IMG/VR virus record: IMGVR_UViG_3300044645_001661
Length of the DNA stretch: 64,000 nt
From: a virus
Taxonomy: Duplodnaviria > Caudoviricetes
Reading direction: 5' to 3' (one strand)
Program-made: the position numbers and the translations under genes
The notes under the pieces: model-generated
Seen by the model: the letters and a program-made list of their open reading frames with translations, nothing else
Databases searched by the model: none
What the model was told of the DNA's origin: nothing
Shown: piece after piece, positions 5,679 through 18,081 of the stretch
Numbering within the stretch: the stretch's first letter is position 1
How the letters are laid out: every line of letters begins with the position of its first letter

Positions 5679-5950
5679 TGAGACTTTTTTATTATTTTTA
5701 TCAAGAAGATTTTGGTCATGAACTTTATCTGAACATCTTTGCGTTTAGAAGGTTTAACATATTTCAATTAGAACTTATGTGGGATGATTTTCCTACTTGG
5801 ATTCCTTATCTTACATTGTCTTTTTTGGGACATTATGGTAGTCTTATTGGAGTTACATTTGGTTTTGGTAAGTTTAGATTTTCTTTTGACTTCCTTGCAT
5901 ATCAACCAAAGGATTTGAATTATCTTCGCAAATGTTATGGAAAGAATTAG
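5675..5950 (+). CDS. hydrophobic Phe-rich hypothetical protein
   Basis: ORF track; ATGA overlap. Confidence 0.7.
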   Translation: MMRLFYYFYQEDFGHELYLNIFAFRRFNIFQLELMWDDFPTWIPYLTLSFLGHYGSLIGVTFGFGKFRFSFDFLAYQPKDLNYLRKCYGKN

Positions 5951-6158
5951 ATATTGGATATACGAGTTGTGGTACAAGTACAAGTCATGGAGATTTGAAC
6001 GCAAATGTATCAAACATCTTGGTATGAAACCAACAAAGATGTATGTTTCAGAAGAAGCATATGATGCTTTATTGAAGGCAATCAATGCCCCACCAGATCC
6101 AGAAAAAATTAAGAGATTTAAAGAATTAATGCAAAGACCAGCTCCTTGGGATGAATAA
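5937..6158 (+). CDS. hypothetical protein
   Basis: ORF track. Confidence 0.7.
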   Translation: MERIRYWIYELWYKYKSWRFERKCIKHLGMKPTKMYVSEEAYDALLKAINAPPDPEKIKRFKELMQRPAPWDE

Positions 6159-6879
6159 TATGGAATCAAAATATGAATATGAATATACTGAACATATAAA
6201 TCCAGGAGTCCTCAGTTTTAAATTAACTGAGGACCATGTTGATTTAATTTGGAAATATATTAAACGATCTGCTTCTTTTTTTGAAGGGTGGACATTTGAT
6301 GATAAAAATAAAGTCTTAACAAGTGGTGAAGTTCAACAATGGACTTTATATGATACTACTAAAATATTTGAAAATGAGGTATTGATTCCTGCAGTAAATG
6401 CTTATGTTGATAAATGGGGATATCCCATGAATATTAAAACTACCCATTTACCAGTTCCTGAATTTAATAGATTTTGGGTTAGATTTTCAAATATTGGTGA
6501 TTATCACGCTTTACATGATCATCAAGCCATATGGAGTTTTGTAATTTGGTTAAATCTTCCAACATCATGGGAAGAAGAGCAAGAAACTAGAATGAGGGGA
6601 AAACATCCACACGCATCTGATTTTCAATTATGTTACACTGATTCTATAGGTAGAGTTAGAAAACAAGATTATAAGTTGGATAGAAAGGGTGAAAAAACAA
6701 TGTTACTTTATCCAAGTGATTTTCATCATCAAGTTTATCCTCATTTCACTTCAGACGAATTTAGAGTTGCTGTTGCGGGAGATATTTCTATTTGCAGCAG
6801 GTATCATTTAGAAGCACTACCTATTCATCTTGAAGCTGATATTGAATATAATAATTTTGTAAATGATGAAAATAATTAA
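6151..6879 (+). CDS. putative 2OG-Fe(II) oxygenase
   Basis: LHDH...WSFVIWL, distal YPSDFHHQVYP and C-terminal FRVAVAG match the cyanophage 2OG-Fe(II) oxygenase pattern. Confidence 0.8.
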   Translation: MNNMESKYEYEYTEHINPGVLSFKLTEDHVDLIWKYIKRSASFFEGWTFDDKNKVLTSGEVQQWTLYDTTKIFENEVLIPAVNAYVDKWGYPMNIKTTHLPVPEFNRFWVRFSNIGDYHALHDHQAIWSFVIWLNLPTSWEEEQETRMRGKHPHASDFQLCYTDSIGRVRKQDYKLDRKGEKTMLLYPSDFHHQVYPHFTSDEFRVAVAGDISICSRYHLEALPIHLEADIEYNNFVNDENN

Positions 6880-6921
6880 AGACTTAAAATATACAAGACT
6901 ATAAATTATTGTGAGGTAAAA

Positions 6922-7201: not shown

Positions 7202-7576
7202 ATGAATAATCAATACGACAGAGAAGAAGAACAAGTAGAATATGTTTTCAATGTCAACACTTTTGGGATGGTTGAAATTGAAACTGAGACAATTCCAACA
7301 ACAGAATCTGTTATTAATGATGCTGCAGAAAAAGCATCAAAAATTTTAAATGTTGATCTTAAAAATATTGATAAAATCAAATTTTTAAGAATGTATCTTG
7401 CACTTTATTCAATGTGTGGTTATCATCCTACAGATCGATCTGTAGGAGATAATATGATGCGTTGGTGGTTAAATACTGATAATAAGCATCTTGGATATAT
7501 ACCTGTAAATTATCTTCATCATCCATTACAATTAGATGAAATCATTCGTTATCTAGAATCATTTATTAATCATTAA
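7202..7576 (+). CDS. hypothetical protein
   Basis: ORF track. Confidence 0.65.
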   Translation: MNNQYDREEEQVEYVFNVNTFGMVEIETETIPTTESVINDAAEKASKILNVDLKNIDKIKFLRMYLALYSMCGYHPTDRSVGDNMMRWWLNTDNKHLGYIPVNYLHHPLQLDEIIRYLESFINH

Positions 7577-7914: not shown

Positions 7915-8121
7915 ATGAAGAAGGGAGATTCTGTAACTTTTATTAGTTGTAGCACAACCCAAATTCAATGGGGTAATAATGATGATCCATATCTAACTTT
8001 AGAGGAAGGTGAGATTTATACTGTTGAAGATGTAAAAATTCACAGTATGCATACAAAAATAAAGTTAATTGGTTATAATGGTTGGTACAATAGTGTTTGT
8101 TTTATAAGGAACGAATTATGA
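7915..8121 (+). CDS. hypothetical protein (QWGNNDDP...HTK...NSVCF), start ATG 7915
   Basis: ORF track; ATGA overlap with the next gene. Confidence 0.7.
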   Translation: MKKGDSVTFISCSTTQIQWGNNDDPYLTLEEGEIYTVEDVKIHSMHTKIKLIGYNGWYNSVCFIRNEL

Positions 8122-8348
8122 ATGCAATTTTATGGAATGGTACATTAGATAATCGCTATGAATGTACTGTAGAACACACATCTCAATACAAAGGGCAATT
8201 ACGCATCTTTGATAATCAAACTGATTCAGTTCTTTTAATTGAAGAAGTTGGTGTATCTTATGGTGCAACATTTGGTGCTGACATGGGTGATGTATCTGAT
8301 TGGCAGAATCGTTGTTCTGAATTCATTGATTCAATGGCATCAAATTAA
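8118..8348 (+). CDS. hypothetical protein (start ATG 8118)
   Basis: ORF track. Confidence 0.7.
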   Translation: MNAILWNGTLDNRYECTVEHTSQYKGQLRIFDNQTDSVLLIEEVGVSYGATFGADMGDVSDWQNRCSEFIDSMASN

Positions 8349-8370
8349 TTCAATTTAATAGGAATTTAAA

Positions 8371-8847
8371 ATGGATGATTTAACAAAGACTGCATTATGG
8401 ATCATCATGGATCCCTGGTATCCTACACCATACAAATGGGACTTAGACCAATATCCAAATATTGATGAACTGAATGAAGTTGTATTGAATCGAATTGTAG
8501 ATTATATTCCAAATTTAAATCATGTTTGCATCTCCTGCCCATTAACGATTATGGAGGATGATAAGGTTAAACAAGTCACACCACATCCAAAAGTATCTCA
8601 TTTGTATAACTTAGAGAACAGTATCTTTAAGTTATATTTTTATATGAAGAAGCATAATTTGAAGTCTATTGTGTATTGTGGATTTCACTATGGACGTTGT
8701 ATTCTAGATAAAGATGATGGGGCAATGAATACAACAAAACATTATGATGTATGGGTTAAAAAAGACTTTTGTGGATTGTATCCAGAAGATGATTGGGAAT
8801 CAACAGATGATCTTACACTTAAGTATGCAAAGATATACGATAGATAA
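8371..8847 (+). CDS. isochorismatase/cysteine-hydrolase-like protein
   Basis: ALWIIMDPW (beta1 Asp), IVYCGFHYGRCI (nucleophile loop), YDVWVKKDFC. Confidence 0.6.
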   Translation: MDDLTKTALWIIMDPWYPTPYKWDLDQYPNIDELNEVVLNRIVDYIPNLNHVCISCPLTIMEDDKVKQVTPHPKVSHLYNLENSIFKLYFYMKKHNLKSIVYCGFHYGRCILDKDDGAMNTTKHYDVWVKKDFCGLYPEDDWESTDDLTLKYAKIYDR

Positions 8848-8872
8848 TTATAACATCTAAGATCTTTTTTAA

Positions 8873-9835
8873 ATGGCAAAGTATTCAGAGCGAATGATTC
8901 GTGAAAACCAAAGACCAGGTGGATATAATGGTATTTGTTTTGGTCTTTTACATGATGAAGCAAGAAATAAGTTTTATGATGAATCACTCAAAAGGGCAAA
9001 AAATAAACGTGTTGTTGATGTTGGATCTGGTAGTGGATTGTTAGGGTTTTTAGCATTAAAACACGGGGCAAAGCATGTAACTTTTATTGAACAGAATCCA
9101 ACGTCTTATTGTCATATAAGAAAGGTATCTGAGATTATGGGAATTGATAAATCCCGTTATCGTATTATTAATGATGAGTTTGTTGCAAGTCGATGGGATG
9201 AATATCGATTAAACAATCCTGATATGATTGTACATGAATTAGTTGGTAGTTATATTTGGAATGATACAATTGGACAGGCATTTAATCAGTTCATACCTAA
9301 TGTAGAGATTATACCAAACTTATATGAATTAAAGTTTAGTATTGTTCCATTAAGTGAGTCTGGTTTTAATTATCTGCGTAAGTATCAAAATCAAGAGTCT
9401 ATTGAGAAGAGAACATTCTTGGATGTACGTGTTCCTATTGATAAGAAGTTTATTGCTTATTATGAGAACGTTTTAAATGATTATGATTATGAGATAGGTA
9501 TAGTACCTAGAGGAATGAGATCAATGCATGATGAATTGTTTGAGAGTTTATATTCATCTAAGATAGAGTATTATACACATGTATTTGATATTAATAAGGA
9601 GAAGGATTATAAGAGTAATACTATTGCATCGTTTAACTTACCTAAGACAGATAATCCTTATTTAATTTTTATTCATCCTTATCTTCACTCTAAGAAGAAT
9701 ACATTAGACTTTGTAGAGAGTACATCCTTTACTGGTCATCGTAGACCTATACTGATTCCTCCTCATGGTGAGTATAAGAAGTTAACGTATGATGTATTGA
9801 AGAATTATATGACGATTGATGATGTAAAAGTATAG
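8873..9835 (+). CDS. class I SAM-dependent methyltransferase, PRMT-like
   Basis: LLHDEARNKFY, VVDVGSGSGLL, TFIEQN, DMIVHELVGSYIWND. Confidence 0.85.
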   Translation: MAKYSERMIRENQRPGGYNGICFGLLHDEARNKFYDESLKRAKNKRVVDVGSGSGLLGFLALKHGAKHVTFIEQNPTSYCHIRKVSEIMGIDKSRYRIINDEFVASRWDEYRLNNPDMIVHELVGSYIWNDTIGQAFNQFIPNVEIIPNLYELKFSIVPLSESGFNYLRKYQNQESIEKRTFLDVRVPIDKKFIAYYENVLNDYDYEIGIVPRGMRSMHDELFESLYSSKIEYYTHVFDINKEKDYKSNTIASFNLPKTDNPYLIFIHPYLHSKKNTLDFVESTSFTGHRRPILIPPHGEYKKLTYDVLKNYMTIDDVKV

Positions 9836-10011
9836 TTTTTAATGTTTTTATATTAAAAAATGTATTAAAAAACATATAATAGTGTTTTTATTATCGTATT
9901 ACATTAGTGTTATATGGTAGTCTTATAGTGTTATTATCTCTTATAATAGTACTGAATCCTTTGGTTATTATACCTTTTATACCTCTGGATCCTTGTGATC
10001 TTAGACTGCGT

Positions 10012-10040
10012 ATTATAGCACAACCGCGAAAAAATGTCAA
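10012..10040 (-). promoter_or_regulatory. leftward sigma70-type promoter TTGACA-17-TATAAT with extended TG
   Basis: plus strand TGTCAA 10035-10040 and ATTATA 10012-10017; perfect consensus. Confidence 0.85.
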
Positions 10041-10071
10041 GCCCCCCGCCCAAAAAATATAAGGACGCGGC

Positions 10072-10100
10072 ATTTTATCACACACGCCCCCGTTTGTCAA
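10072..10100 (-). promoter_or_regulatory. leftward sigma70-type promoter TTGACA-17-TAAAAT with extended TG
   Basis: plus strand TGTCAA 10095-10100 and ATTTTA 10072-10077. Confidence 0.85.
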
Positions 10101-10108
10101 CTCCCAGG

Positions 10109-10329
10109 ATCTCGACGAGACTGCACGGTTATATCTCGACTAGATCACATAATCATATAACACTATCATTATATCATAAGATCTCGACGAGTCATATCAC
10201 AATATAACATCAGTATTATATCATACAATCTAGACGATATCATGTCACAGTATCATCACATAACATCATAATTAGTCACAATTATCTCGACGAGTATCAT
10301 ATATAACATCAATAAGATCTCGACGAGAT
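10109..10329. repeat. six copies of the 13-bp interrupted palindrome ATCTCG-A-CGAGAT
   Basis: starts at 10109, 10133, 10181, 10228, 10284, 10317; 0-2 mismatches; G-poor spacers. Confidence 0.9.
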
Positions 10330-10342
10330 CATGTGATGTCAC

Positions 10343-10371
10343 TTGACAAGACTTGCCGTATCATGTACACT
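10343..10371 (+). promoter_or_regulatory. sigma70-type promoter TTGACA-17-TACACT
   Basis: seen in sequence; perfect palindrome copy centred 43 bp upstream of the -10. Confidence 0.8.
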
Positions 10372-10395
10372 GTACACAGTTCGCACAAAGTTCTC

Positions 10396-10566
10396 ATGGG
10401 TAACACCGCATTCCTGGAAGCACAGAAGCACAAGTATCGCGTCACTCTAGAACTAGACGTTCTTGGAGATTTCGATCCTCATAATATCAACTGGGAGAAG
10501 TTGTTTGATCTTAATCCTGCAGAGAGTGTCAAATCTTATGTCGAAGACCTAGACTATCATTGGTAA
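10396..10566 (+). CDS. small conserved cyanophage-type protein (start ATG 10396)
   Basis: the longer ORF-track start overlaps the promoter; YRVTLELDV...INWEKLFDL. Confidence 0.75.
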   Translation: MGNTAFLEAQKHKYRVTLELDVLGDFDPHNINWEKLFDLNPAESVKSYVEDLDYHW

Positions 10567-10737
10567 CATAACATCATAGCATAAGGGATCCTGATGCGTC
10601 AAGTATGACGCACCCTTATGTGTATAAGTATTTCAAAGCTGGGGAAGTGGCGATGTATTGTCGTCCTCAGGGATACCTCTCCCCTCTTCTGGTTGTCTAC
10701 AAAAGATACATCAGAACGCCCGCAAAACCTGCATTGG

Positions 10738-10795
10738 GTGCCAGTTTGTGAACTGGTCACATGTGGCACAAGGTCCTAGGAGCAGCGGTTATAGT
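10738..10795 (+). promoter_or_regulatory. box A (GTGCCAGTT-tgtg-AACTGGTCAC) promoter, -10 TATAGT 10790-10795
   Basis: palindrome 10738-10760, ending 30 bp before the -10; no -35 consensus. Confidence 0.65.
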
Positions 10796-10819
10796 TGCTG
10801 GGCAAACGCAATTCGACCG

Positions 10820-11023
10820 ATGATTTTTTTGACATCTACCAATCATGGTTGTGTGTATACTCTGTCTCAAGAGGACGGTGATGAGTTGTACTTTGCACCC
10901 ATCTATGCAGACGGAACTGTTAACCTGGAGGAGTTCGCTCCTGTGGATATGAGTACTGTTGACATGGATGACATGGAGGTGTATGATATCCGTAACCGAC
11001 TGGTTGCCCTGTCCAATCTCTGA
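10820..11023 (+). CDS. hypothetical protein, 67 aa (start ATG 10820)
   Basis: downstream of the box A promoter; C-terminal part of ORF-track 10658..11023. Confidence 0.7.
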   Translation: MIFLTSTNHGCVYTLSQEDGDELYFAPIYADGTVNLEEFAPVDMSTVDMDDMEVYDIRNRLVALSNL

Positions 11024-11067
11024 ACTGGCACAAGGGGGTTGACAGGACCCCCACCATCGGTTAAATT
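11010..11067 (+). promoter_or_regulatory. box A (degenerate left half, AACTGGCAC 11023-11031) + TTGACA-17-TAAATT; GGGGG/CCCCC stem brackets the -35
   Basis: seen in sequence; box ends 31 bp before the -10. Confidence 0.8.
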
Positions 11068-11093
11068 TAAATCGTTCACCACTCAACCAAACA

Positions 11094-11558
11094 ATGGGAA
11101 CCCGCTCTCGCATCGGTTACGAACTTCCTGATCACTCTGTGGTTAGTGTTTACTGCCACTGGGATGGTTATGTAGAGAACAACGGTCGCATTCTGGTAGA
11201 GCACTATCAGAACCGCGATGATGTACAAGAACTCATCGATGGTGGTTCAATGTCAACTCTTCGTACCACTCACACCTGGGAGAGTGCTGCTCTTCGGGAT
11301 GAGAACGGCAAGATCATCGAAGATGATGCGGGCAGTTGGTCCTATTCCAACACTCGTGATCCTCAACCACTGTATCATTCTGAGCGTGGTGAGAATAACG
11401 AACCAGATGTCACTGACTTCGATATGTTTGTCTCTGGTAAAATGGGTGGCGAAGAGTATGCTTACCTGTATGATCTCAATGGTAACTGGAAAGCATACAA
11501 GATCGGTTGGGGACCTGTTGAACGTGTGGACATCCCCAACTACGTGACAGCAGCATAA
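11094..11558 (+). CDS. conserved phage protein (GTRSRIG...VYCHWDGY family)
   Basis: widely seen phage motif; function unknown. Confidence 0.85.
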   Translation: MGTRSRIGYELPDHSVVSVYCHWDGYVENNGRILVEHYQNRDDVQELIDGGSMSTLRTTHTWESAALRDENGKIIEDDAGSWSYSNTRDPQPLYHSERGENNEPDVTDFDMFVSGKMGGEEYAYLYDLNGNWKAYKIGWGPVERVDIPNYVTAA

Positions 11559-11601
11559 CTGTCACACTGGTCCTGGGCAAGACGCTAAACTGCCCTATAC
11601 T
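11544..11601 (+). promoter_or_regulatory. box A (GTGACAGCA-gcat-AACTGTCAC) promoter, -10 TATACT
   Basis: box ends 31 bp before the -10; GGGCA/TGCCC stem in the spacer; no -35 consensus. Confidence 0.75.
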
Positions 11602-11622
11602 TCATTCAGTTCAAACAAACCA

Positions 11623-11772
11623 ATGAACTTCACCATTAACGAACTCTCTGCTCTCTCTGATCTAATCTCCTTCCATGATGATTGGGATGAGGTAAGTGAG
11701 CGTGTTGGTTGCAATGTTTATGATCTTTATGAAAAGATCATGGGTGCAATGGATTCTGCAGGGGAGAGTTGA
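11623..11772 (+). CDS. acidic 49-aa protein, not in ORF track
   Basis: read from sequence; follows the promoter at 11596. Confidence 0.7.
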   Translation: MNFTINELSALSDLISFHDDWDEVSERVGCNVYDLYEKIMGAMDSAGES

Positions 11773-11774
11773 TC

Positions 11775-11996
11775 ATGTCACTCTCTAACAAATCAGTCAA
11801 CCGAATTGCTGCTGCACTTGTTGAAGAAGTTACTGAAGAACTTGTTGAGACTGGTGCATGGTTAGATTTCCTCCACACTAACATTGGTGGAATCATCACC
11901 GATAAACTTGGTGAAGTTGATGATGAAGTTCTAGCAGAACTGATTATGTGTGTCGCAGATCGAATTGGTATGAAACCATACACAGATCTCGACTAG
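11775..11996 (+). CDS. acidic hypothetical protein
   Basis: ORF track (first ATG used). Confidence 0.7.
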   Translation: MSLSNKSVNRIAAALVEEVTEELVETGAWLDFLHTNIGGIITDKLGEVDDEVLAELIMCVADRIGMKPYTDLD

Positions 11997-12086
11997 ATGC
12001 GTGTCACGTATCATATCAATCTCGACGAGATACGTGACGCATCACTTGACTAGATCAAATAATCATGTTATTATGATCTAGTCAAC
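11986..12086 (+). promoter_or_regulatory. two 13-bp palindrome copies (11986, 12019) and tRNA promoter TTGACT-17-TATTAT inside nested inverted repeats
   Basis: TTGACTAGATCA/TGATCTAGTCAA and GATGCGT..CACGTATC/GATACGTGACGCATC inverted repeats. Confidence 0.8.
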
Positions 12087-12091
12087 CACAA

Positions 12092-12175
12092 GGGGATGTG
12101 GTGGAATCGGTAGACACAACAGACTTAAAATCTGTCGGAGGCAACTCTGTGGGGGTTCAAGTCCCCCCGTCCCTA
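12092..12175 (+). tRNA. trnL: tRNA-Leu(UAA), no intron, CCA not encoded
   Basis: acceptor GGGGATG/CGTCCCT, anticodon arm ACAGA-CTTAAAA-TCTGT, long variable arm, T arm GGGGG-TTCAAGT-CCCCC. Confidence 0.95.
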
Positions 12176-12235
12176 TTACCTCTTCAATGGTATAATGTAC
12201 CATAAGAGGTCCAAACTCTCCTTCTAGAGGCACTC

Positions 12236-12376
12236 ATGCACGAATCCACGCTTGATATGTTCTGCTCTCATGACAACGACAATCTGGATATTGATGATGC
12301 TTTCCTATGTGCATTTGAGGAAGAAGCGGCTAAGTTAGAAATTACAGTAGATTATTATATGGCAGAGTTCCTGTAA
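12236..12376 (+). CDS. acidic 46-aa protein (EAAKLEITVDYYMAEF), not in ORF track
   Basis: read from sequence; GAGG upstream; motif familiar from cyanophage small genes. Confidence 0.7.
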   Translation: MHESTLDMFCSHDNDNLDIDDAFLCAFEEEAAKLEITVDYYMAEFL

Positions 12377-12458
12377 TATAATGGGGAAGGTGTTTGCCCT
12401 AAAAGTTACACTGTTACGCAGTTAATATTCTTTTAAATTAATGGGTGGATATGGTATC

Positions 12459-12489
12459 AAGACCTGGGGTGGTGCCCAGGTCTTTTTTT
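12459..12489 (+). terminator. intrinsic terminator
   Basis: AAGACCTGGG-gtggtg-CCCAGGTCTT followed by a T run. Confidence 0.85.
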
Positions 12490-12506
12490 ATGTTTTGTAA
12501 CAGACC

Positions 12507-12534
12507 TTGCCAGGGGGTGCTGGTGTGGTATGAT
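12507..12534 (+). promoter_or_regulatory. sigma70-type promoter TTGCCA-16-TG-g-TATGAT
   Basis: directly after the terminator, before ATG 12560. Confidence 0.65.
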
Positions 12535-12559
12535 TTGAAGGTCACCACGGGAGAACCCC

Positions 12560-12691
12560 ATGACTCTGGTTTGTGCCTCTGACATCGCCACCCGCCAACT
12601 GGTGTGGGTGAAGAACGCCACCGCCACTGGTGTGCCAGCTGCAGCACCGTCCCATGTTTGGGCAGATCTCGGTCGCCGTGGTATGATTTGA
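12560..12691 (+). CDS. 43-aa protein (MTLVCASDIATRQLVWV...), not in ORF track
   Basis: read from sequence; CCCC-ATG start context shared with neighbours. Confidence 0.6.
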   Translation: MTLVCASDIATRQLVWVKNATATGVPAAAPSHVWADLGRRGMI

Positions 12692-12712
12692 TTGTTCAAC
12701 ACCTGAACCACC

Positions 12713-12883
12713 ATGATCGCTGATCTCAACGGTTGCTTCCAACGTAATCCCGACATTCTCAAAGATGTTTGTGAGCACCGTGTTCAAATGGCAAACTTTG
12801 TATTAAGTTTTAACGAAAAGGATCCTGTTGAAAGTGCATGGTATCGTAGCGAAATCCGTCATTACAAACTCTATGATGTCTGA
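12713..12883 (+). CDS. 56-aa protein, not in ORF track
   Basis: read from sequence; TTCAACACCTGAACC leader. Confidence 0.6.
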   Translation: MIADLNGCFQRNPDILKDVCEHRVQMANFVLSFNEKDPVESAWYRSEIRHYKLYDV

Positions 12884-12937
12884 TCAGTAACGCTTATGGG
12901 TCAGGGGGTTGACTCCTGACCCACCCCATGCCAAACT
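12882..12937 (+). promoter_or_regulatory. box B (reverse orientation, GATCAG-N5-CTTATG) + TTGACT-17-TG-c-CAAACT; GGGTCAGG/CCTGACCC stem around the -35
   Basis: 12880-12902 is the reverse complement of 15139-15161 with 2 mismatches. Confidence 0.75.
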
Positions 12938-12961
12938 ACGTTTGTTCACCACTGAACCCCA

Positions 12962-13405
12962 ATGATTACCGAAACCGATCTGCAGTTCTTTGAGACCCAC
13001 TATCAAGCGGTTGAGAATCTTGGTATTCTCAATGTGTTTGAAGATCGTGAGGATCGTATTCGCTTCCGTGCCATCTCTAAGATGATGGAAGATCTTCTGG
13101 CACCTAAAAAAGAAAAGATCTCTCTCACTGAAGAAGAAATTCAACCCATCTTCCGCGAGTATCTTAACGCTTATACTTTTGACGGTAAGGTTAAAGTTTT
13201 TAACCGCAAGATTGCTGCTGAAGGTGTTCAATCCTTCCGCAAGAATCCTATTGCAACTGTCATGGGTATTCATGGGCAACTGGTGTATCATGACAACTGC
13301 AATCACAGCATTGTAAAGTCTTTTGATCGCACTGGTAAAACTCTGAAATCGATGATGTCTCAGTATAATGAACTGATCGGTTTTGAGCGGTTCAAGATCG
13401 ACTGA
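12962..13405 (+). CDS. hypothetical protein
   Basis: ORF track; own promoter and TTCACCACTGAAC leader. Confidence 0.8.
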   Translation: MITETDLQFFETHYQAVENLGILNVFEDREDRIRFRAISKMMEDLLAPKKEKISLTEEEIQPIFREYLNAYTFDGKVKVFNRKIAAEGVQSFRKNPIATVMGIHGQLVYHDNCNHSIVKSFDRTGKTLKSMMSQYNELIGFERFKID

Positions 13406-13459
13406 CACATTAAGAACTGTCACAGGGGGGCATCCGTGCCTCCCATCATGCCCTAAGAT
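13402..13459 (+). promoter_or_regulatory. box A (CTGACACAT-taag-AACTGTCAC) promoter, -10 TAAGAT
   Basis: box ends 31 bp before the -10; GGGGGGCA/TGCCTCCC stem; no -35 consensus. Confidence 0.75.
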
Positions 13460-13482
13460 TACTTCGTTCACCACTGAATCCC

Positions 13483-13620
13483 ATGCCTGAACTCTCCTGG
13501 ATTGATGATGTTCCGATGCCCGCAATGTCGGAAGAAGAGTATAATCAATCTGAAGAGCATTATGAAGATTCGGATTGGTGGAATGATCCCAACTGTGTAA
13601 TGTCCCGTCATCACTATTGA
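13483..13620 (+). CDS. acidic 45-aa protein (WNDPN..SRHHY), not in ORF track
   Basis: read from sequence. Confidence 0.7.
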   Translation: MPELSWIDDVPMPAMSEEEYNQSEEHYEDSDWWNDPNCVMSRHHY

Positions 13621-13623
13621 ATC

Positions 13624-13764
13624 ATGTTTGAACTTCTTGCTGCCGCTTACATGATCGGTCAGGTTCAAGTTGGACCTAACATGATCCAAACTAATTACAT
13701 CAACGAAGACAAACAAATCATCACTGTCACTGAAGTGATTCAAGAGGTTCCTAATGCAAATTGA
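13624..13764 (+). CDS. 46-aa protein, not in ORF track
   Basis: read from sequence; fills the gap. Confidence 0.6.
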   Translation: MFELLAAAYMIGQVQVGPNMIQTNYINEDKQIITVTEVIQEVPNAN

Positions 13765-13936
13765 TCGTGATTCTCTCATCGCTGATTATGCTCAGCAGAT
13801 CCTAGATGGGATGGACATGAAGACAATGGAGTGCTTCGTTTATGACACTCTGAAGGACAATCTTTCATCGTATTCTGATGAGGAATTGATTGAAGAAGTG
13901 ACAGAGTATAACCCCGAACTTCTAGAAAATGCCTAA
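13754..13936 (+). CDS. acidic hypothetical protein
   Basis: ORF track. Confidence 0.75.
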   Translation: MQIDRDSLIADYAQQILDGMDMKTMECFVYDTLKDNLSSYSDEELIEEVTEYNPELLENA

Positions 13937-14012
13937 AGTATAAATCATTACAGGATGGTTGGTATCTTGATTGTCATTGATACCATAAAACTCTACTGAG
14001 TGCTTCCCATCC

Positions 14013-14070
14013 TACCCAATTCTTGAACTGGCACATACCGCTTGACATGCTGCCAGGGATCGCTTAATCT
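14013..14070 (+). promoter_or_regulatory. box A (degenerate left half, AACTGGCAC 14026-14034) + TTGACA-17-TAATCT
   Basis: box ends 31 bp before the -10. Confidence 0.8.
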
Positions 14071-14141
14071 GTTATCAACAAGCGGGGGTGAAGCATCCCG
14101 CTCAAAACACTTCACTCAAACCCTTACATTGTGATTTAATT

Positions 14142-14369
14142 ATGTCTCAGTTCGCTTTTACCTCTTCTGCCATCGAAAGCATCTCTGATGTGAATGATGG
14201 TAAAGTGACCATCACCTTCAACGGTGGTCGTGAGTATACCTACGGTGTGCAAGATGTTGAGATGTTCGTGTCTCAACTGAGCACCGTGATTGCAGAACAG
14301 CAGTCGGTGGGTCGTTTTGTAAACAATGCTATCAAGACTGAGCAACTGCTTGCAGTGACCGCCGCCTGA
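14142..14369 (+). CDS. KTSC-domain protein (start ATG 14142)
   Basis: SSAIESI...VTITFNGGREYTY...SVGRFVNNAIK fits the KTSC pattern. Confidence 0.7.
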   Translation: MSQFAFTSSAIESISDVNDGKVTITFNGGREYTYGVQDVEMFVSQLSTVIAEQQSVGRFVNNAIKTEQLLAVTAA

Positions 14370-14424
14370 TAGTACAATACGGGAGGAGGCAACTCCTCCC
14401 ATTCCACAATCAACATAAAGAACC

Positions 14425-14583
14425 ATGGAACAATTTTTCGACACCGAAGAGTTCACCATCTTTGATCTTGTTGATGAATGCCAACCTCGTGAAGAATTAA
14501 CTTCTGAGGCAAAGCGTATGCTTAATGAAGTTGATGAGTATGATGACTATTCAGAAAGTTCAACCGATTTTGATTATGATTAA
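14425..14583 (+). CDS. very acidic 52-aa protein, not in ORF track
   Basis: read from sequence; GNRA-hairpin leader at 14381-14400. Confidence 0.65.
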   Translation: MEQFFDTEEFTIFDLVDECQPREELTSEAKRMLNEVDEYDDYSESSTDFDYD

Positions 14584-14641
14584 TCTCGACTAGTTAATCA
14601 TCATAATCTCGTCGAGTTATATCATAACATCTCGACGAGAT
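14583..14641. repeat. three 13-bp palindrome copies at 23-bp spacing
   Basis: ATCTCGACTAG 14583, ATCTCGTCGAG 14606, ATCTCGACGAGAT 14629. Confidence 0.85.
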
Positions 14642-14676
14642 ACACACAACACACCATTGAAATTCTTCTCTTTAAC

Positions 14677-14811
14677 ATGGAAACTCGTTCGCTTCTTCTC
14701 TCGCTCCTTCGTAAAGGTCAAACTGGTGAAGAAATTCTCCAGATTCTGGAAACTATCACTAGTGGCGATGATGATAGTGATGGTGCTACCTTGAACCCAA
14801 TCGATTTCTGA
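14677..14811 (+). CDS. 44-aa protein (LLRKGQTGEEILQILE), not in ORF track
   Basis: read from sequence. Confidence 0.65.
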   Translation: METRSLLLSLLRKGQTGEEILQILETITSGDDDSDGATLNPIDF

Positions 14812-14815
14812 TACA

Positions 14816-15004
14816 ATGGAAACCGCATTCGTGACGCCTGTATCTAAAAAAGCAAAGAACCGATTTGCTAATCTTATGGGTGGAATTGATGAATGTATTG
14901 TAGAGCAGCATAAAGGTGATAAAGTATTTCTTACAAGTGTGAATGGTAAAAATCACTTCTGGGTTAATATAAACAAAGATCCAGACTGGATCATAGAGTT
15001 CTAA
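14816..15004 (+). CDS. conserved small protein (AKNRFANLM...KVFLTSVNGKNHFWVN)
   Basis: ORF track; terminator follows. Confidence 0.75.
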   Translation: METAFVTPVSKKAKNRFANLMGGIDECIVEQHKGDKVFLTSVNGKNHFWVNINKDPDWIIEF

Positions 15005-15015
15005 GATCATACCAC

Positions 15016-15041
15016 ACCCCGCAACTAGCGGGGTTTTTTTT
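15016..15041 (+). terminator. intrinsic terminator
   Basis: ACCCCGC-aacta-GCGGGGT + T8. Confidence 0.9.
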
Positions 15042-15081
15042 ATACTTAAGTATTGTATGCTTCCCACCCCTCCCGCCCTCT

Positions 15082-15197
15082 AGCGTAGGGGCGGTGCCCC
15101 CTAAAAGTCAACCCCTGGCTTATAAGCATTTCTGATGCGACCCATAAGCGAGACTGATCAGAAAACCCGTTGCAGGGTGCCCCCGATGCTGTAGGAT
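15082..15197. promoter_or_regulatory. divergent promoter pair around two tandem box B sites (15121-15137, 15143-15159)
   Basis: leftward TTGACT (15106-11)-18-TACGCT (15082-87); rightward TTGCAG (15170-75)-16-TAGGAT (15192-97). Confidence 0.65.
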
Positions 15198-15220
15198 TCG
15201 ATCAACGCCAACCCACCCCC

Positions 15221-15835
15221 ATGGCACACACCGATTCGATCATCGCAATGTATTTCCAGAGCAACACTCTGGATCGGCAAACTGGTGCCCAATGGTATAA
15301 CAATGCCTATGGCATTTGTGTTACTTTGGGCGAAAAGTATGGTGTTCATTCTGACATCGTTGCAGGTGTTATCGCTGCACTTTCTCCTAACAACAAATGG
15401 GAGAGAAATGTAGAGGATGCTGAGGCAATGATCAAAGCATGGGCATACGAAATCTCCTATGATTCGGTTGCAGTTTGTTCCTACTCTGCCAACAAAGACA
15501 AGGCACAAACTATTCTCGATTTGCAACTTAATCGTGAGCAGATTGTTAAAGTTTTGCGTGGCAACAAAACTATTGCTTTCTTCCTTTGTATTGCTAACAA
15601 TGGTGATAGCGATTCTCCCTGCATTGATGGTCACGCTTACAACATTTGGAACGGAACTGTAACTAACCTGAAAGAGGTTCCTTCTATGTCAGACAAAACT
15701 TTCCGCATGATTCAAGATGCCTACCGTGACGCTGCTAAGTTAATCTCTGAGGTGTCGGGATCTTATCATTCAGCGGCACAGATTCAAGCGATCACCTGGG
15801 TTTCGTATCGCAGGATACACAAAGGTCTAGTGTGA
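15221..15835 (+). CDS. putative HhH-fold DNA glycosylase-like protein (start ATG 15221)
   Basis: GAQWY, AGVIAALSPNNKW, RGNKTIAFF, CIDGHAYNIW, AQIQAITWV. Confidence 0.6.
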   Translation: MAHTDSIIAMYFQSNTLDRQTGAQWYNNAYGICVTLGEKYGVHSDIVAGVIAALSPNNKWERNVEDAEAMIKAWAYEISYDSVAVCSYSANKDKAQTILDLQLNREQIVKVLRGNKTIAFFLCIANNGDSDSPCIDGHAYNIWNGTVTNLKEVPSMSDKTFRMIQDAYRDAAKLISEVSGSYHSAAQIQAITWVSYRRIHKGLV

Positions 15836-15892
15836 CGGATTGTTACGGGGCACCGCCAGCACCCACGGGTGCCCCATCCCATCCTGTAGAAT
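15831..15892 (+). promoter_or_regulatory. box C (TGTGA-N7-TTAC) + GGGGCACC/GGTGCCCC stem + -10 TAGAAT
   Basis: near-identical layout recurs at 16916-16967. Confidence 0.65.
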
Positions 15893-15917
15893 TTCAGAGT
15901 CAACACGAGAGAGACCC

Positions 15918-16103
15918 ATGCGGTTCTACATCCTCCCCGACCACACCGATTTCGTTCCTGCTGATCAGGAATGGTTCTACACTCAAGATGAGGCATACGA
16001 TGCCGCGTTTGATTGGAGTGCTGAACTCGGCGGAGTTCCTGTTAAGATTGGCACCTTCAATCTTGGCGGTCCTAGTTACACTGTGGCGGTTGTAACTGCC
16101 TGA
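15918..16103 (+). CDS. 61-aa protein (start ATG 15918)
   Basis: part of ORF-track 15840..16103 downstream of the promoter. Confidence 0.7.
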   Translation: MRFYILPDHTDFVPADQEWFYTQDEAYDAAFDWSAELGGVPVKIGTFNLGGPSYTVAVVTA

Positions 16104-16115
16104 GGGTAACAACAA

Positions 16116-16135
16116 CGGGGGGTGAAATTCCCCCC
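16116..16135 (+). repeat. 20-nt hairpin CGGGGGGTGAAATTCCCCCC, identical copy at 17147-17166
   Basis: exact duplicate; each lies ~25-30 nt before an ATG. Confidence 0.85.
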
Positions 16136-16163
16136 AATTCTTTACATTCAACCCCACAAGATC

Positions 16164-16325
16164 ATGGCAATCGGTATCACCATCCGTTACCAAACTCCCT
16201 ACAATCAGTGTGAGTGGAGAACGCAAACTTTCCCCACAATTGATGAGGCAAACCGCATGGTAGATTTCTATCGTTCCTGTGGTTCTCCTGCTGAGGTTGT
16301 TACTTTCCGTGAGGGGCAAAAATGA
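16164..16325 (+). CDS. 53-aa protein (IRYQTPYNQCEWR...RMVDFYRSCGSPA)
   Basis: start ATG 16164 after the hairpin. Confidence 0.7.
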   Translation: MAIGITIRYQTPYNQCEWRTQTFPTIDEANRMVDFYRSCGSPAEVVTFREGQK

Positions 16326-16432
16326 AAACATTTATGATCATTTTTGCAGTTGCGTTTCTATTCTCTCCAGCAGTTAGAAACACTACCGCGAACACTCTAC
16401 ACACCGCCGCCGCCATCATTTCTGCAGAATGA
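16322..16432 (+). CDS. 36-aa hydrophobic peptide, not in ORF track
   Basis: ATGA overlaps at both ends. Confidence 0.55.
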   Translation: MKTFMIIFAVAFLFSPAVRNTTANTLHTAAAIISAE

Positions 16433-16596
16433 CACACTATCCCTCCCGCCTTCGGTTTAAACTTCCCGCCGAAAGAATCACTGAACTTGTTGAAAAGAAT
16501 TGCACAATCCTAAGTGATGCTGAATGGATGCAATTTTTTGAAGAAATTAACACTATTTCCGATTGTAACGATTCGCCCGTTCTGGTCACGACCTGA
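16429..16596 (+). CDS. 55-aa protein, not in ORF track
   Basis: ATGA overlap. Confidence 0.5.
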   Translation: MTHYPSRLRFKLPAERITELVEKNCTILSDAEWMQFFEEINTISDCNDSPVLVTT

Positions 16597-16659
16597 CCGC
16601 CTGACCGTCTAGGATACTAACAAGCGAGGCAAGGGACCTCGCTCAACCCCAAACCGACT

Positions 16660-16920
16660 ATGTTCGCTTCGATCATCCGCACCGCCATCCGCTCCCACCT
16701 GATCCAGAACGGTCCCCAGACCTGCTCTGATCTTGTGCGGGCGATGGGTTTGGATCCCCGCCGCCATAAGGGCACCATTCACGCCCTTATGGTTGATCTT
16801 GAGACTGCAGGCACCCTGTCTGCCACCCGTGCTGATAATGGCAAGCGGGATCTGTGGTTTGTGAATTTCGATCAAATCCGCAAGCGGGATCGTATCATCG
16901 CTGCCCTCTCTGGAGTGTGA
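16660..16920 (+). CDS. winged helix-turn-helix DNA-binding protein
   Basis: IRSHLIQNGPQTCSDLVRAMGL...TIHALMVDLETAGTL...W: three helices plus a beta wing. Confidence 0.7.
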   Translation: MFASIIRTAIRSHLIQNGPQTCSDLVRAMGLDPRRHKGTIHALMVDLETAGTLSATRADNGKRDLWFVNFDQIRKRDRIIAALSGV

Positions 16921-16967
16921 ACGATTGTTACAGGGGCATCGCTAAGGGTGCCCCTACCCTCTAAGAT
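16916..16967 (+). promoter_or_regulatory. box C (TGTGA-N7-TTACA) + GGGGCATC/GGTGCCCC stem + -10 TAAGAT
   Basis: TTAC ends 31 bp before the -10. Confidence 0.7.
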
Positions 16968-17005
16968 ACATTCAAGCGGGACACACCCGCACTGCTCTAA
17001 ACATC

Positions 17006-17140
17006 ATGTTCGATCCCTTTGTTTGTGATCAGCAGATTGAAGAATACATCCCCACAGAGGATGATTGGCATTCAATCTACGATGATGATCAGGAACTGGA
17101 AATGTACTCTCTAGAGTGTTGCTTCGGTCCTGAGGAATGA
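17006..17140 (+). CDS. very acidic 44-aa protein, not in ORF track
   Basis: read from sequence. Confidence 0.65.
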   Translation: MFDPFVCDQQIEEYIPTEDDWHSIYDDDQELEMYSLECCFGPEE

Positions 17141-17191
17141 AACAATCGGGGGGTGAAATTCCCCCCTTCTCAAACTAACCCAATTCTCGCC

Positions 17192-17518
17192 ATGTTCCCC
17201 ACCGTTCTTCTCAACAATCCGATGATTGAAAAGTATAATGAACTGCGGCAGGAAGTTCTTTCTAACGAAACCCTGCAGCAGGTTCTTTATACTCTCGCCA
17301 CGGTTCTAGGTGTTATCGTAGGCGTTAGCGTTTGGTTCTACAATCGTGCCCGCCAATGGTATAACGAAGGTGGCAAAGATCTTTTCTACTTTGGTATCAA
17401 TACTAAGGCAGGAAAGGATGATGAACAGTTCGGCGTTGCTGTAGGCAAACTCTACGTGGGTTTGTATAACAATGTCGTTCACATTGGGCTCACCGATCAC
17501 AATGGGTGCCTGCCTTAA
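17192..17518 (+). CDS. membrane-anchored hypothetical protein (start ATG 17192 or 17221)
   Basis: hydrophobic VLYTLATVLGVIVGVSVWFY segment. Confidence 0.7.
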   Translation: MFPTVLLNNPMIEKYNELRQEVLSNETLQQVLYTLATVLGVIVGVSVWFYNRARQWYNEGGKDLFYFGINTKAGKDDEQFGVAVGKLYVGLYNNVVHIGLTDHNGCLP

Positions 17519-17916
17519 TTAACACTTATGGGGTGCTGAGTTCGTTATACTTAGCACCCCTACATTCGTGCGTAAGTGTAAATGTGACAGTCTGTGACAG
17601 ACAGTTGACGGTATAACGGTATCGTGATAGCGGCGGGCCGTGCCCCCTACCCCCCCTTAGCTAAAATCGATGACTCCCCTAACCTACAGAGGTGACAAAA
17701 CGAGTGAGTGATTTCATGTCCATAAGAAAAAAATTTACCAAAAATTTTCTGCCCCATAAGGTCATCAAAAACCCTCACATAAGTCTTTACGTGCAACTGG
17801 AGTATGTTATAATAAGTCTCCGAGAATCTCTATGGATTCTCATATCACACGCCCTCAAAGAATTTTCCGAGGGGGCAAAGAGGTGATATATAATGATGTA
17901 ATGAGAAAGTGAGGCG

Positions 17917-18081
17917 ATGGACAAAAAAATCTATCACATTTATGATAAAGAGAATCAGTGTGTATCTCCATGTTTATCTGAGGAAGAATTCAGTAATACT
18001 TGGAAAGAACTCACAGAAGATTCTTATGAATACGAAGAACTCGATGTTTCTTATTCAAAACAAGAAGAGGCATCTTATTGA
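17917..18081 (+). CDS. 54-aa conserved cyanophage-type protein (IYHIY...EEASY), not in ORF track
   Basis: GAGG SD; read from sequence. Confidence 0.7.
   Translation: MDKKIYHIYDKENQCVSPCLSEEEFSNTWKELTEDSYEYEELDVSYSKQEEASY

Follow-up and report, generated by a model that had tools for sequence, protein, structure and literature searches.

We report a phage gene whose product, P0001, is a protein arginine methyltransferase (PRMT)-type protein, an assignment that is well supported by the predicted structure and by the conserved active-site residues: in the model, a Rossmann SAM domain at the N-terminus precedes a C-terminal beta-barrel that bears a helical arm. The gene is found in a viral DNA stretch of 64,000 nucleotides (the window, meaning the whole stretch that was analysed). 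We consider it probable (roughly 60%), by homology to characterized PRMTs, that P0001 is an active, SAM-dependent and homodimeric methyltransferase of PRMT fold, which most likely methylates the guanidino nitrogen of protein arginine (of the host or of the phage) during infection.

Conserved motifs and sequence relatives

The positions of the gene, its motifs and its upstream neighbor are listed in Table 1. An initial annotation of the window had proposed a PRMT-like enzyme from six motif strings, and all six are present in the translation of P0001 in the order given; for example, VVDVGSGSGLL (motif I) spans residues 47–57, TFIEQN (post-I) residues 70–75, IIPNLYEL residues 146–153 and FTGHRRP residues 286–292.

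Table 1. Features of the PRMT-fold methyltransferase gene, its product P0001 and the neighboring ORF in the window
Feature	Position	Strand	Basis or remark
PRMT-fold methyltransferase gene, product P0001 (320 aa)	8873..9835 (including stop codon)	+	ORF list and translation; homologues; PRMTs as best matches
Pre-motif-I helix LLHDEARNKFY, residues 25–35 (equivalent of PRMT helix alpha-Y)	8945..8977	+	aligned to MMNDEERNNFY of TbPRMT7
Motif I VVDVGSGSG, residues 47–55 (putative SAM-binding glycine loop)	9011..9037	+	G51, G53 and G55 in 57/57 members
Post-I motif VTFIE, residues 69–73	9077..9091	+	E73 in 57/57 members; E or D in 133/133 distant relatives
[quoted passage not shown]
Motif III remnant NVEIIP, residues 143–148	9299..9316	+	P148 invariant; usual glycine missing
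C-terminal beta-barrel domain, residues 145–320, arm included	9305..9832	+	predicted structure
Helical insert (predicted dimerization arm), residues 162–202 in the C-terminal domain	9356..9478	+	model helices 162–179 and 191–202; F193, Y196 and Y197 conserved
THW-loop equivalent TSFTGH, residues 284–289	9722..9739	+	consensus [TS]-[SA]-F-[TSN]-G-[YH]
158-aa ORF, 25 bp upstream of the methyltransferase gene	8371..8847	+	same neighbor in L006–L012; different neighbors in L002 and L003

When the single sequence was searched against PDB with phmmer, PRMTs dominated the list from the top, with TbPRMT7 (4m36) first at 1.3e-6. We found 35 homologous clusters (proteins of about 320 aa) in a collection of 5.8 billion proteins, and 28 of these clusters were used to build a family profile, A1. 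Against PDB this profile reaches 3.7e-15, with PRMTs making up roughly the first 45 distinct sequences, and the aligned region takes in the double-E loop, where the family's HELvGsyiWnd falls on the TbPRMT7 segment given in Table 1. As judged from these sequence comparisons, the resemblance to PRMTs far exceeds chance. We also searched 1.84 billion cluster representatives exhaustively and obtained 450 relatives at E ≤ 0.001; many of them are 300–370 aa long, have an E-x8-E loop (EI.G..IW.E type) and carry a canonical [ST]HW some 35–45 residues before the C-terminus. The phage family is homologous to these canonical-motif relatives along its entire length (287 columns by hhalign, at a probability of 100% and E 7.8e-46).

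Family databases gave partial matches. The Pfam family Cons_hypoth95 (the RsmD family) scores 30.7 bits (cut-off 24), over residues 28–103 only; PHROG 3820 ('DNA methyltransferase') is matched at E 0.0024; and the Pfam PRMT5 match is weak (E 0.031; 14.6 bits versus a cut-off of 22.9). The Pfam PRMT_C family does not match P0001, and a profile of the C-terminal half finds no meaningful match among PDB sequences. An identity as PrmA was considered and rejected: the Pfam match (18 bits versus a cut-off of 22) covers residues 42–73 only, and the NCBIfam prmA model scores 21.6 versus a cut-off of 183.

Conservation was counted in 57 full-length family members aligned to the family model with hmmalign, alongside 133 more distant relatives. 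Twelve residues are found in all 57 members (R31, Y35, G51, G53, G55, E73, H121, E122, G125, W129, P148 and Y197). They include R31 and Y35 of a helix of the MLxDxxRxxxY type, which bears the arginine for the SAM carboxylate; D28 of this helix is kept in 44 out of 57. The double-E loop of P0001, set against the PRMT pattern SExMGxxLxxE, reads H-E122-L-V-G125-S-Y-I128-W-N-D131, with the glycine and a hydrophobic residue at the correct offsets. Its E-x8-D spacing had been put forward in the initial annotation as equivalent to the two PRMT glutamates, and this is correct: E122 and D131 are nine apart and match the pair. The second acidic residue is Asp in the window's own copy; across the family, position 131 is always acidic (36 D and 21 E). 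Of the 133 distant relatives, 131 have E122; at position 131, 106 of them carry Glu and seven carry Asp.

A 2026 review (PMC12925635) defines a set of six PRMT motifs, including motif I (VLD/VGxGxG), post-I and motif III. Three of the six (motif I, motif II and the double-E loop) are present in P0001, the acidic residue of post-I is present, motif III is reduced to its proline, and THW is altered. By homology, E73 would be the acidic residue that holds the SAM ribose, as in PRMTs; the third position of the post-I motif is F or C in the family versus G or A in PRMTs. P148 is the invariant proline of the motif III pattern LK/xxGxxxP, but there is no glycine four residues earlier. The YFxxY motif of type I enzymes is absent from P0001, whose N-terminal helix carries Y4-S-E-R-M8 (family consensus YSxRM).

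A canonical THW loop (THWxQ) is lacking in the P0001 family, with the histidine lost in either of two registers. The tryptophan of the [ST]HW relatives falls on F286 with hmmalign (T284-S285-F286), and their SHW falls on S285-F286-T287 with hhalign; from these alignments the register appears to be T-S-F or S-F-T, with an uncertainty of one residue. In the T-S-F register His is replaced by Ser or Ala (Ser in P0001) and Trp by Phe; in the S-F-T register His is replaced by Phe and Trp by Thr. Of the 57 members, 55 have Phe at position 286 itself and two have Trp. Neither program places THW at G288-H289-R290, the assignment made in the initial annotation, which is off by two to four residues. Position 28, which we take to correspond to the predicted partner of the THW histidine in PRMT1, is E, Q or N in 12 of the 57 members, a relaxation that fits the loss of that histidine. 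The loss may be tolerable, because PRMT5, an active enzyme, has Ser578-Trp579 in this part of its substrate site (Glu435 and Glu444 being its double E; PMC11650783). THW is also lost in a Leishmania PRMT3, for which activity is left open in the review (PMC12925635).

Predicted fold and dimer

The AlphaFold2 model of P0001 made with A1 has a pLDDT of 88.8 and a pTM of 0.84. All of the top 50 Foldseek matches in PDB are PRMTs (CARM1, PRMT3, PRMT1, PRMT6 and TbPRMT7), with E-values of about 1e-14 and about 330 aligned columns. VIA-align superimposes the model (residues 4–320) on PRMT6, PRMT3, CARM1 and PRMT1 with Z of 18.2–19.2 and rmsd of 3.6–5.1 over 256–288 residues. The nearest entries by shape in the ESM Atlas are viral clusters (TM 0.66–0.74) and eukaryotic type I PRMTs (TM 0.69–0.72, 271–292 residues).

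Since the C-terminal half is without a sequence match in PDB, the barrel claim rests on the predicted structure. Residues 143–320 folded alone give a pLDDT of 86.1. The top 50 Foldseek matches of this isolated domain are again all PRMTs, yet they are weak (E 1e-3 to 8e-3, probability 0.80–0.98, TM 0.32–0.41). In a VIA comparison with 48,161 representative chains, which is independent of Foldseek, the first nine places go to PRMT C-terminal domains (Z 5.2–7.0), and such domains take 14 out of the top 16 places (Z 4.5–7.0, 112–162 residues, in the correct region of the chain). The moderate Z values indicate that the C-terminal domain has diverged; it is the specificity of the match list that carries the assignment of the modeled domain as a PRMT barrel. 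A fold without this barrel, resembling small-molecule or DNA methyltransferases, is the outcome that the initial annotation had set against its own proposal, and the comparisons returned PRMTs. The choice of a PRMT-type enzyme over one of PrmA, RsmD or DNA-methylase type holds up as well, with a Z of about 19 for the full model and a C-terminal half that finds PRMT barrels first.

Prediction with two copies of P0001 gave an ipSAE of 0.69 (best control, 0.01), passing a dimer mark that is reached by 20 out of 30 proteins solved as pairs and by one out of 23 solved as single chains. At least 78% of the contacts are common to the runs, and the partner pLDDT is at least 87. In the predicted interface, residues 181–201 of the arm (including F193, Y196 and Y197) pack against residues 21–36, 54–63 and 81–89 of the other copy: a predicted head-to-tail homodimer with the arm on the SAM domain, as in PRMTs. 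As PRMT dimers are solved, the prediction may reproduce known structures, and the predicted dimer shows likeness only.

Compared with known enzymes, P0001 is closest in sequence to TbPRMT7 (4m36, 5eku; type III; 343 aa versus 320 aa): the alpha-Y helix, motif I, post-I and the double-E loop align residue by residue. The two differ in that identity is about 14% in the structural alignment, the THW loop is altered in the phage protein, and H121 and W129, which are specific to the phage family, are not known from TbPRMT7; in addition, TbPRMT7 is eukaryotic and its protein substrates are known. Type I PRMTs (PRMT1/Hmt1, PRMT3, PRMT6 and CARM1) are the best structural matches over the whole chain, with the same Rossmann domain, barrel and arm and the same predicted arm-to-SAM-domain dimer; the phage enzyme, however, is without YFxxY, the canonical THW and an extra N-terminal targeting domain, and its second acidic residue is often Asp. 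PRMT5 (type II) has the same double-E spacing and carries Ser in place of the THW histidine, a replacement that the phage loop shares in its T-S-F register. The N-terminal domain of PRMT5 is a TIM barrel, and the enzyme acts together with MEP50. PRMT-fold proteins of bacteria and viruses in metagenomes, the full-length homologues described above, keep [ST]HW, unlike the window's family, and we found no described function for them. PrmA (which methylates lysine of ribosomal protein L11) and RsmD (16S rRNA m2G966) share the class I Rossmann SAM domain with P0001, but they have neither the beta-barrel nor the double-E loop, and their matches are confined to about residues 28–103.

Phage setting and distribution

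The gene belongs to a phage, as the initial annotation had it: the window comes from a T4-like myovirus. PHROG matches include baseplate wedge, head-closure, adaptor, tail sheath stabilizer and large terminase proteins, and also tail sheath, portal, virion structural and scaffold proteins; the terminase-to-portal block has 71–74% DNA identity to Synechococcus phages S-SM2 and S-SCSM1. Contigs as long as 247 kb encode an identical P0001 protein, and the stretch is present in 24 lake-water metagenome runs, among which no RNA run is listed.

The methyltransferase gene is the last in a long run of small, low-GC genes on the same strand, followed by an AT-rich gap and then a block of higher GC. The 158-aa ORF immediately upstream is a possible partner. 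Searches of Pfam, PHROG and NCBIfam gave no match for it; an isochorismatase-like fold is a lead only. A fixed two-gene system was considered and rejected: the ORF is kept in the closest phages only, where it always lies ahead of the methyltransferase gene, and other neighbors are found in L002 and L003. No partner gene conserved across the family was found among the loci compared (including L002, L003 and L006–L012). More distant members lie in the same genome region beside other accessory genes, e.g. a ketoacyl synthase gene (L002) or glycosyltransferase-like genes (L003). Some sister phages carry two tandem methyltransferase copies (51% identical, both with intact motifs); the phage of the window has a single copy.

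Members of the family come from uncultured T4-like phages, in IMG/VR contigs and in metagenomes of lakes and oceans. Neither a tblastn search of P0001 against 50,697 GenBank phage records (at 1e-3) nor a megablast search of positions 8000–11000 against GenBank phages gave a match, and two distant relatives found nothing among GenBank phages, or only a match of 27% coverage to an Acinetobacter phage 'prmA'. A scan with A1 of one genome from each of 185,579 prokaryote species gave Rossmann-motif matches only, at 10 loci, and no close relative. One distant relative (L014) has the context of a bacterial chromosome, beside SMC and LolA genes; the contigs of distant relatives are mostly 1–3 kb long, and bacterial context was seen in L014 only. 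In another viral contig, we observed a more distant PRMT-like ORF (PRMTs are its best match) between ribonucleotide reductase-like genes.

Many Uroviricota clusters of PRMT-fold proteins are present in the ESM Atlas, where several viral clusters of 57–177 members have the same look. The statement in the initial annotation that PRMTs are mainly eukaryotic therefore needs softening, given hundreds of bacterial and viral PRMT-fold clusters in metagenomes. Public (JGI) annotations for the family read 'predicted RNA methylase' and 'tRNA G37 N-methylase Trm5', and the bacterial and viral PRMT-fold proteins of metagenomes are usually annotated as 'L11 methyltransferase'.

Proposed function and significance

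If P0001 methylates protein arginine, SAM would be seated in the Rossmann domain, by homology, and the substrate side chain would enter between the two domains, held by E122 and D131. The conserved aromatic residue F286 of the THW-equivalent loop would close the pocket, and the methyl group would be transferred to a terminal nitrogen of the arginine guanidino group, giving either monomethylarginine or asymmetric or symmetric dimethylarginine. The tandem copies of the closest phages could act as homo- or heterodimers. We favor arginine methylation because sequence, modeled fold and predicted dimer all resemble those of PRMTs, because the SAM-binding residues (G51/G53/G55, E73 and R31) are kept and because the acidic pair that grips the guanidinium in PRMTs is kept at the same spacing (E122 and D/E131). 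Against it we count the altered THW, the missing YFxxY, the motif III without its glycine, the F or C in post-I, the miss by PRMT_C, a barrel that is seen in predicted structure at moderate Z, and the fact that the loci compared share neither a partner gene nor a hint of a substrate. Arginine methylation is also rare in bacteria, and this is counted on the same side.

P0001 may instead combine the PRMT fold and acidic pocket with a physiological substrate other than protein arginine, which we judge less likely but regard as the main competing reading: a small molecule bearing a guanidino or amino group (arginine, agmatine or a polyamine), an amine-bearing modified nucleotide, or a different nucleophile on proteins (lysine, histidine or an N-terminus). 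The family as a whole has an altered form of the THW loop, which shapes the pocket for the substrate; we can name no substrate, of RGG type or other; and the gene sits among small accessory genes, with distant relatives beside ketoacyl synthase or glycosyltransferase-like genes and the PRMT-like gene of another phage between two ribonucleotide reductase genes. However, protein arginine is, to our knowledge, the substrate of all characterized enzymes that combine a double-E loop with this two-domain layout. P0001 also keeps the barrel, which forms the groove, and the dimer arm; in PRMTs these serve peptide binding and processivity. No biosynthetic partner gene is conserved alongside.

It is much less probable that P0001 methylates RNA or DNA in the manner of RsmD/Trm5 or phage DNA methylases, as its public annotations suggest. 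Cons_hypoth95 scores above its cut-off, and PHROG 3820 and the JGI names agree with such a function, but these matches cover only residues 28–103 or 41–79, i.e. the generic SAM half, and end before the catalytic motif. The NCBIfam RsmD model (TIGR00095) gives 29.6 bits versus a cut-off of 117.5. The (D/N)PP(Y/F) motif of amino-methylating nucleic-acid enzymes is absent, with HELVG in its place, and the full-length model matches PRMTs, including a 176-residue C-terminal domain without a counterpart in RsmD or Trm5.

Least probable of all is a PRMT-like scaffold without catalysis (a 'prozyme' or binding protein), whose sole role would be to bind arginine-rich partners or SAM: the THW loop is non-canonical, trypanosome PRMT3 is known as an inactive partner of PRMT1 (PMC12925635) and related phages have tandem paralogues, but the SAM-binding and double-E residues are kept in the 57 members (D or E at position 131) and in both tandem paralogues, the phage of the window cannot depend on an active paralogue because it has only one copy, and the known prozyme is without both the double-E and THW motifs (PMC12925635).

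With protein-arginine methylation as the preferred function, we raise tentatively the possibility that the phage uses this modification as a takeover or counter-defence tool. The targets would then be host arginines (e.g. of the transcription, translation or defence machinery) or the phage's own DNA-binding or virion proteins, and the tandem paralogues of the sister phages might pair as a heterodimer, like the trypanosome enzyme–prozyme pair. Arginine methylation has a central regulatory role in eukaryotes, and a different modification of host arginines, ADP-ribosylation, is known from phages (T4 Alt, ModA and ModB). We found no description of a phage PRMT or of phage arginine methylation in a full-text literature search; if the takeover role is true, P0001 would give the conflict between phages and bacteria its first described arginine-methylating enzyme.

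The analysis also points to an annotation error, in that compact 320-aa phage proteins of PRMT fold (predicted dimers) are filed as 'L11 methyltransferase' or 'RNA methylase'. If activity is shown, the family would represent a new type of phage–host modification and a minimal PRMT for studies of structure and mechanism, with a natural H-to-S, W-to-F variant of the loop, and it would bear on the history of PRMTs before eukaryotes.

The 158-aa ORF upstream of the methyltransferase

In the closest phages (L006-L012), the methyltransferase gene is invariably adjoined by the 158-aa ORF that precedes it in the window (see table). The protein has no match in Pfam, PHROG or NCBIfam, and the ESM Atlas clusters that contain it are viral-only. 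Its predicted structure (ESM Atlas model, pTM 0.92) appears similar to isochorismatase-like and nicotinamidase domains (TM 0.73-0.79). Two of its segments, ALWIIMDPW and IVYCGFHYGRCI, seem by eye to resemble the Asp and Cys motifs of this hydrolase family.

PRMT-like genes in other phages

The PRMT-like gene is present in two tandem copies in the sister phage L010 (8001-9942), and likewise in L011 and L012. These copies share 51% identity, and the SAM and double-E motifs are intact in both; of the two types, the window phage carries only the second. A more distant PRMT-like ORF, on another viral contig (L005), has PRMT1, Hmt1 and CARM1 as its top PDB matches, and is located between ORFs of 758 and 363 aa (from reading the sequences, these flanking ORFs look like the alpha and beta subunits, respectively, of a class I ribonucleotide reductase).

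Other features of the window

Features of the window and of contig L005
Feature	Position	Strand	Remark
124-aa ORF	7202-7576	+	
158-aa ORF	8371-8847	+	ends 25 bp 5' of the methyltransferase gene
Two strong sigma-70-like promoters (predicted)	10040-10012, 10100-10072	-	
Near-palindrome copies	10110-10328, 11987-12030, 14584-14640		
154-aa gene	11094-11558		in higher-GC block
tRNA-Leu (anticodon TAA)	12092-12175	+	in higher-GC block
Giant ORF, 3876 aa	22544-34174	+	in baseplate and tail module
Giant ORF, 2502 aa	35793-43301	+	in baseplate and tail module
ORFs of 597 and 613 aa	56006-59637	-	between portal gene and head genes
PRMT-like ORF (L005)	5845-6906		double-E loop HEIFGHNIFDE

At E 6e-4 and 20.2 bits, the 124-aa ORF weakly matches the Xre/MbcA/ParS antitoxin C-terminal toxin-binding domain, with a score that stays below the cut-off of 24.5. 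Both giant ORFs are flanked by baseplate-wedge genes. The 597- and 613-aa ORFs, without a match in the PHROG comparison, occupy the GC minimum of the window (26-29%), where GC skew is reversed.

The higher-GC block downstream of the methyltransferase

Directly 3' of the methyltransferase gene, GC content rises from about 30% to 44-47% (window 10001-18000). Both predicted minus-strand promoters are directed at the end of this gene. The near-palindrome TCTCGACGAG occurs 15 times against 0.58 expected (one mismatch allowed), and as every copy is intergenic and lies inside the higher-GC block, we consider it a candidate regulatory repeat. The 154-aa gene shares 95% identity with its counterpart in L002, a contig with a more distant family member, whereas between these two phages methyltransferase identity is only 40%; together with the GC jump, this contrast suggests that the block has had a different history or is under much stronger constraint.
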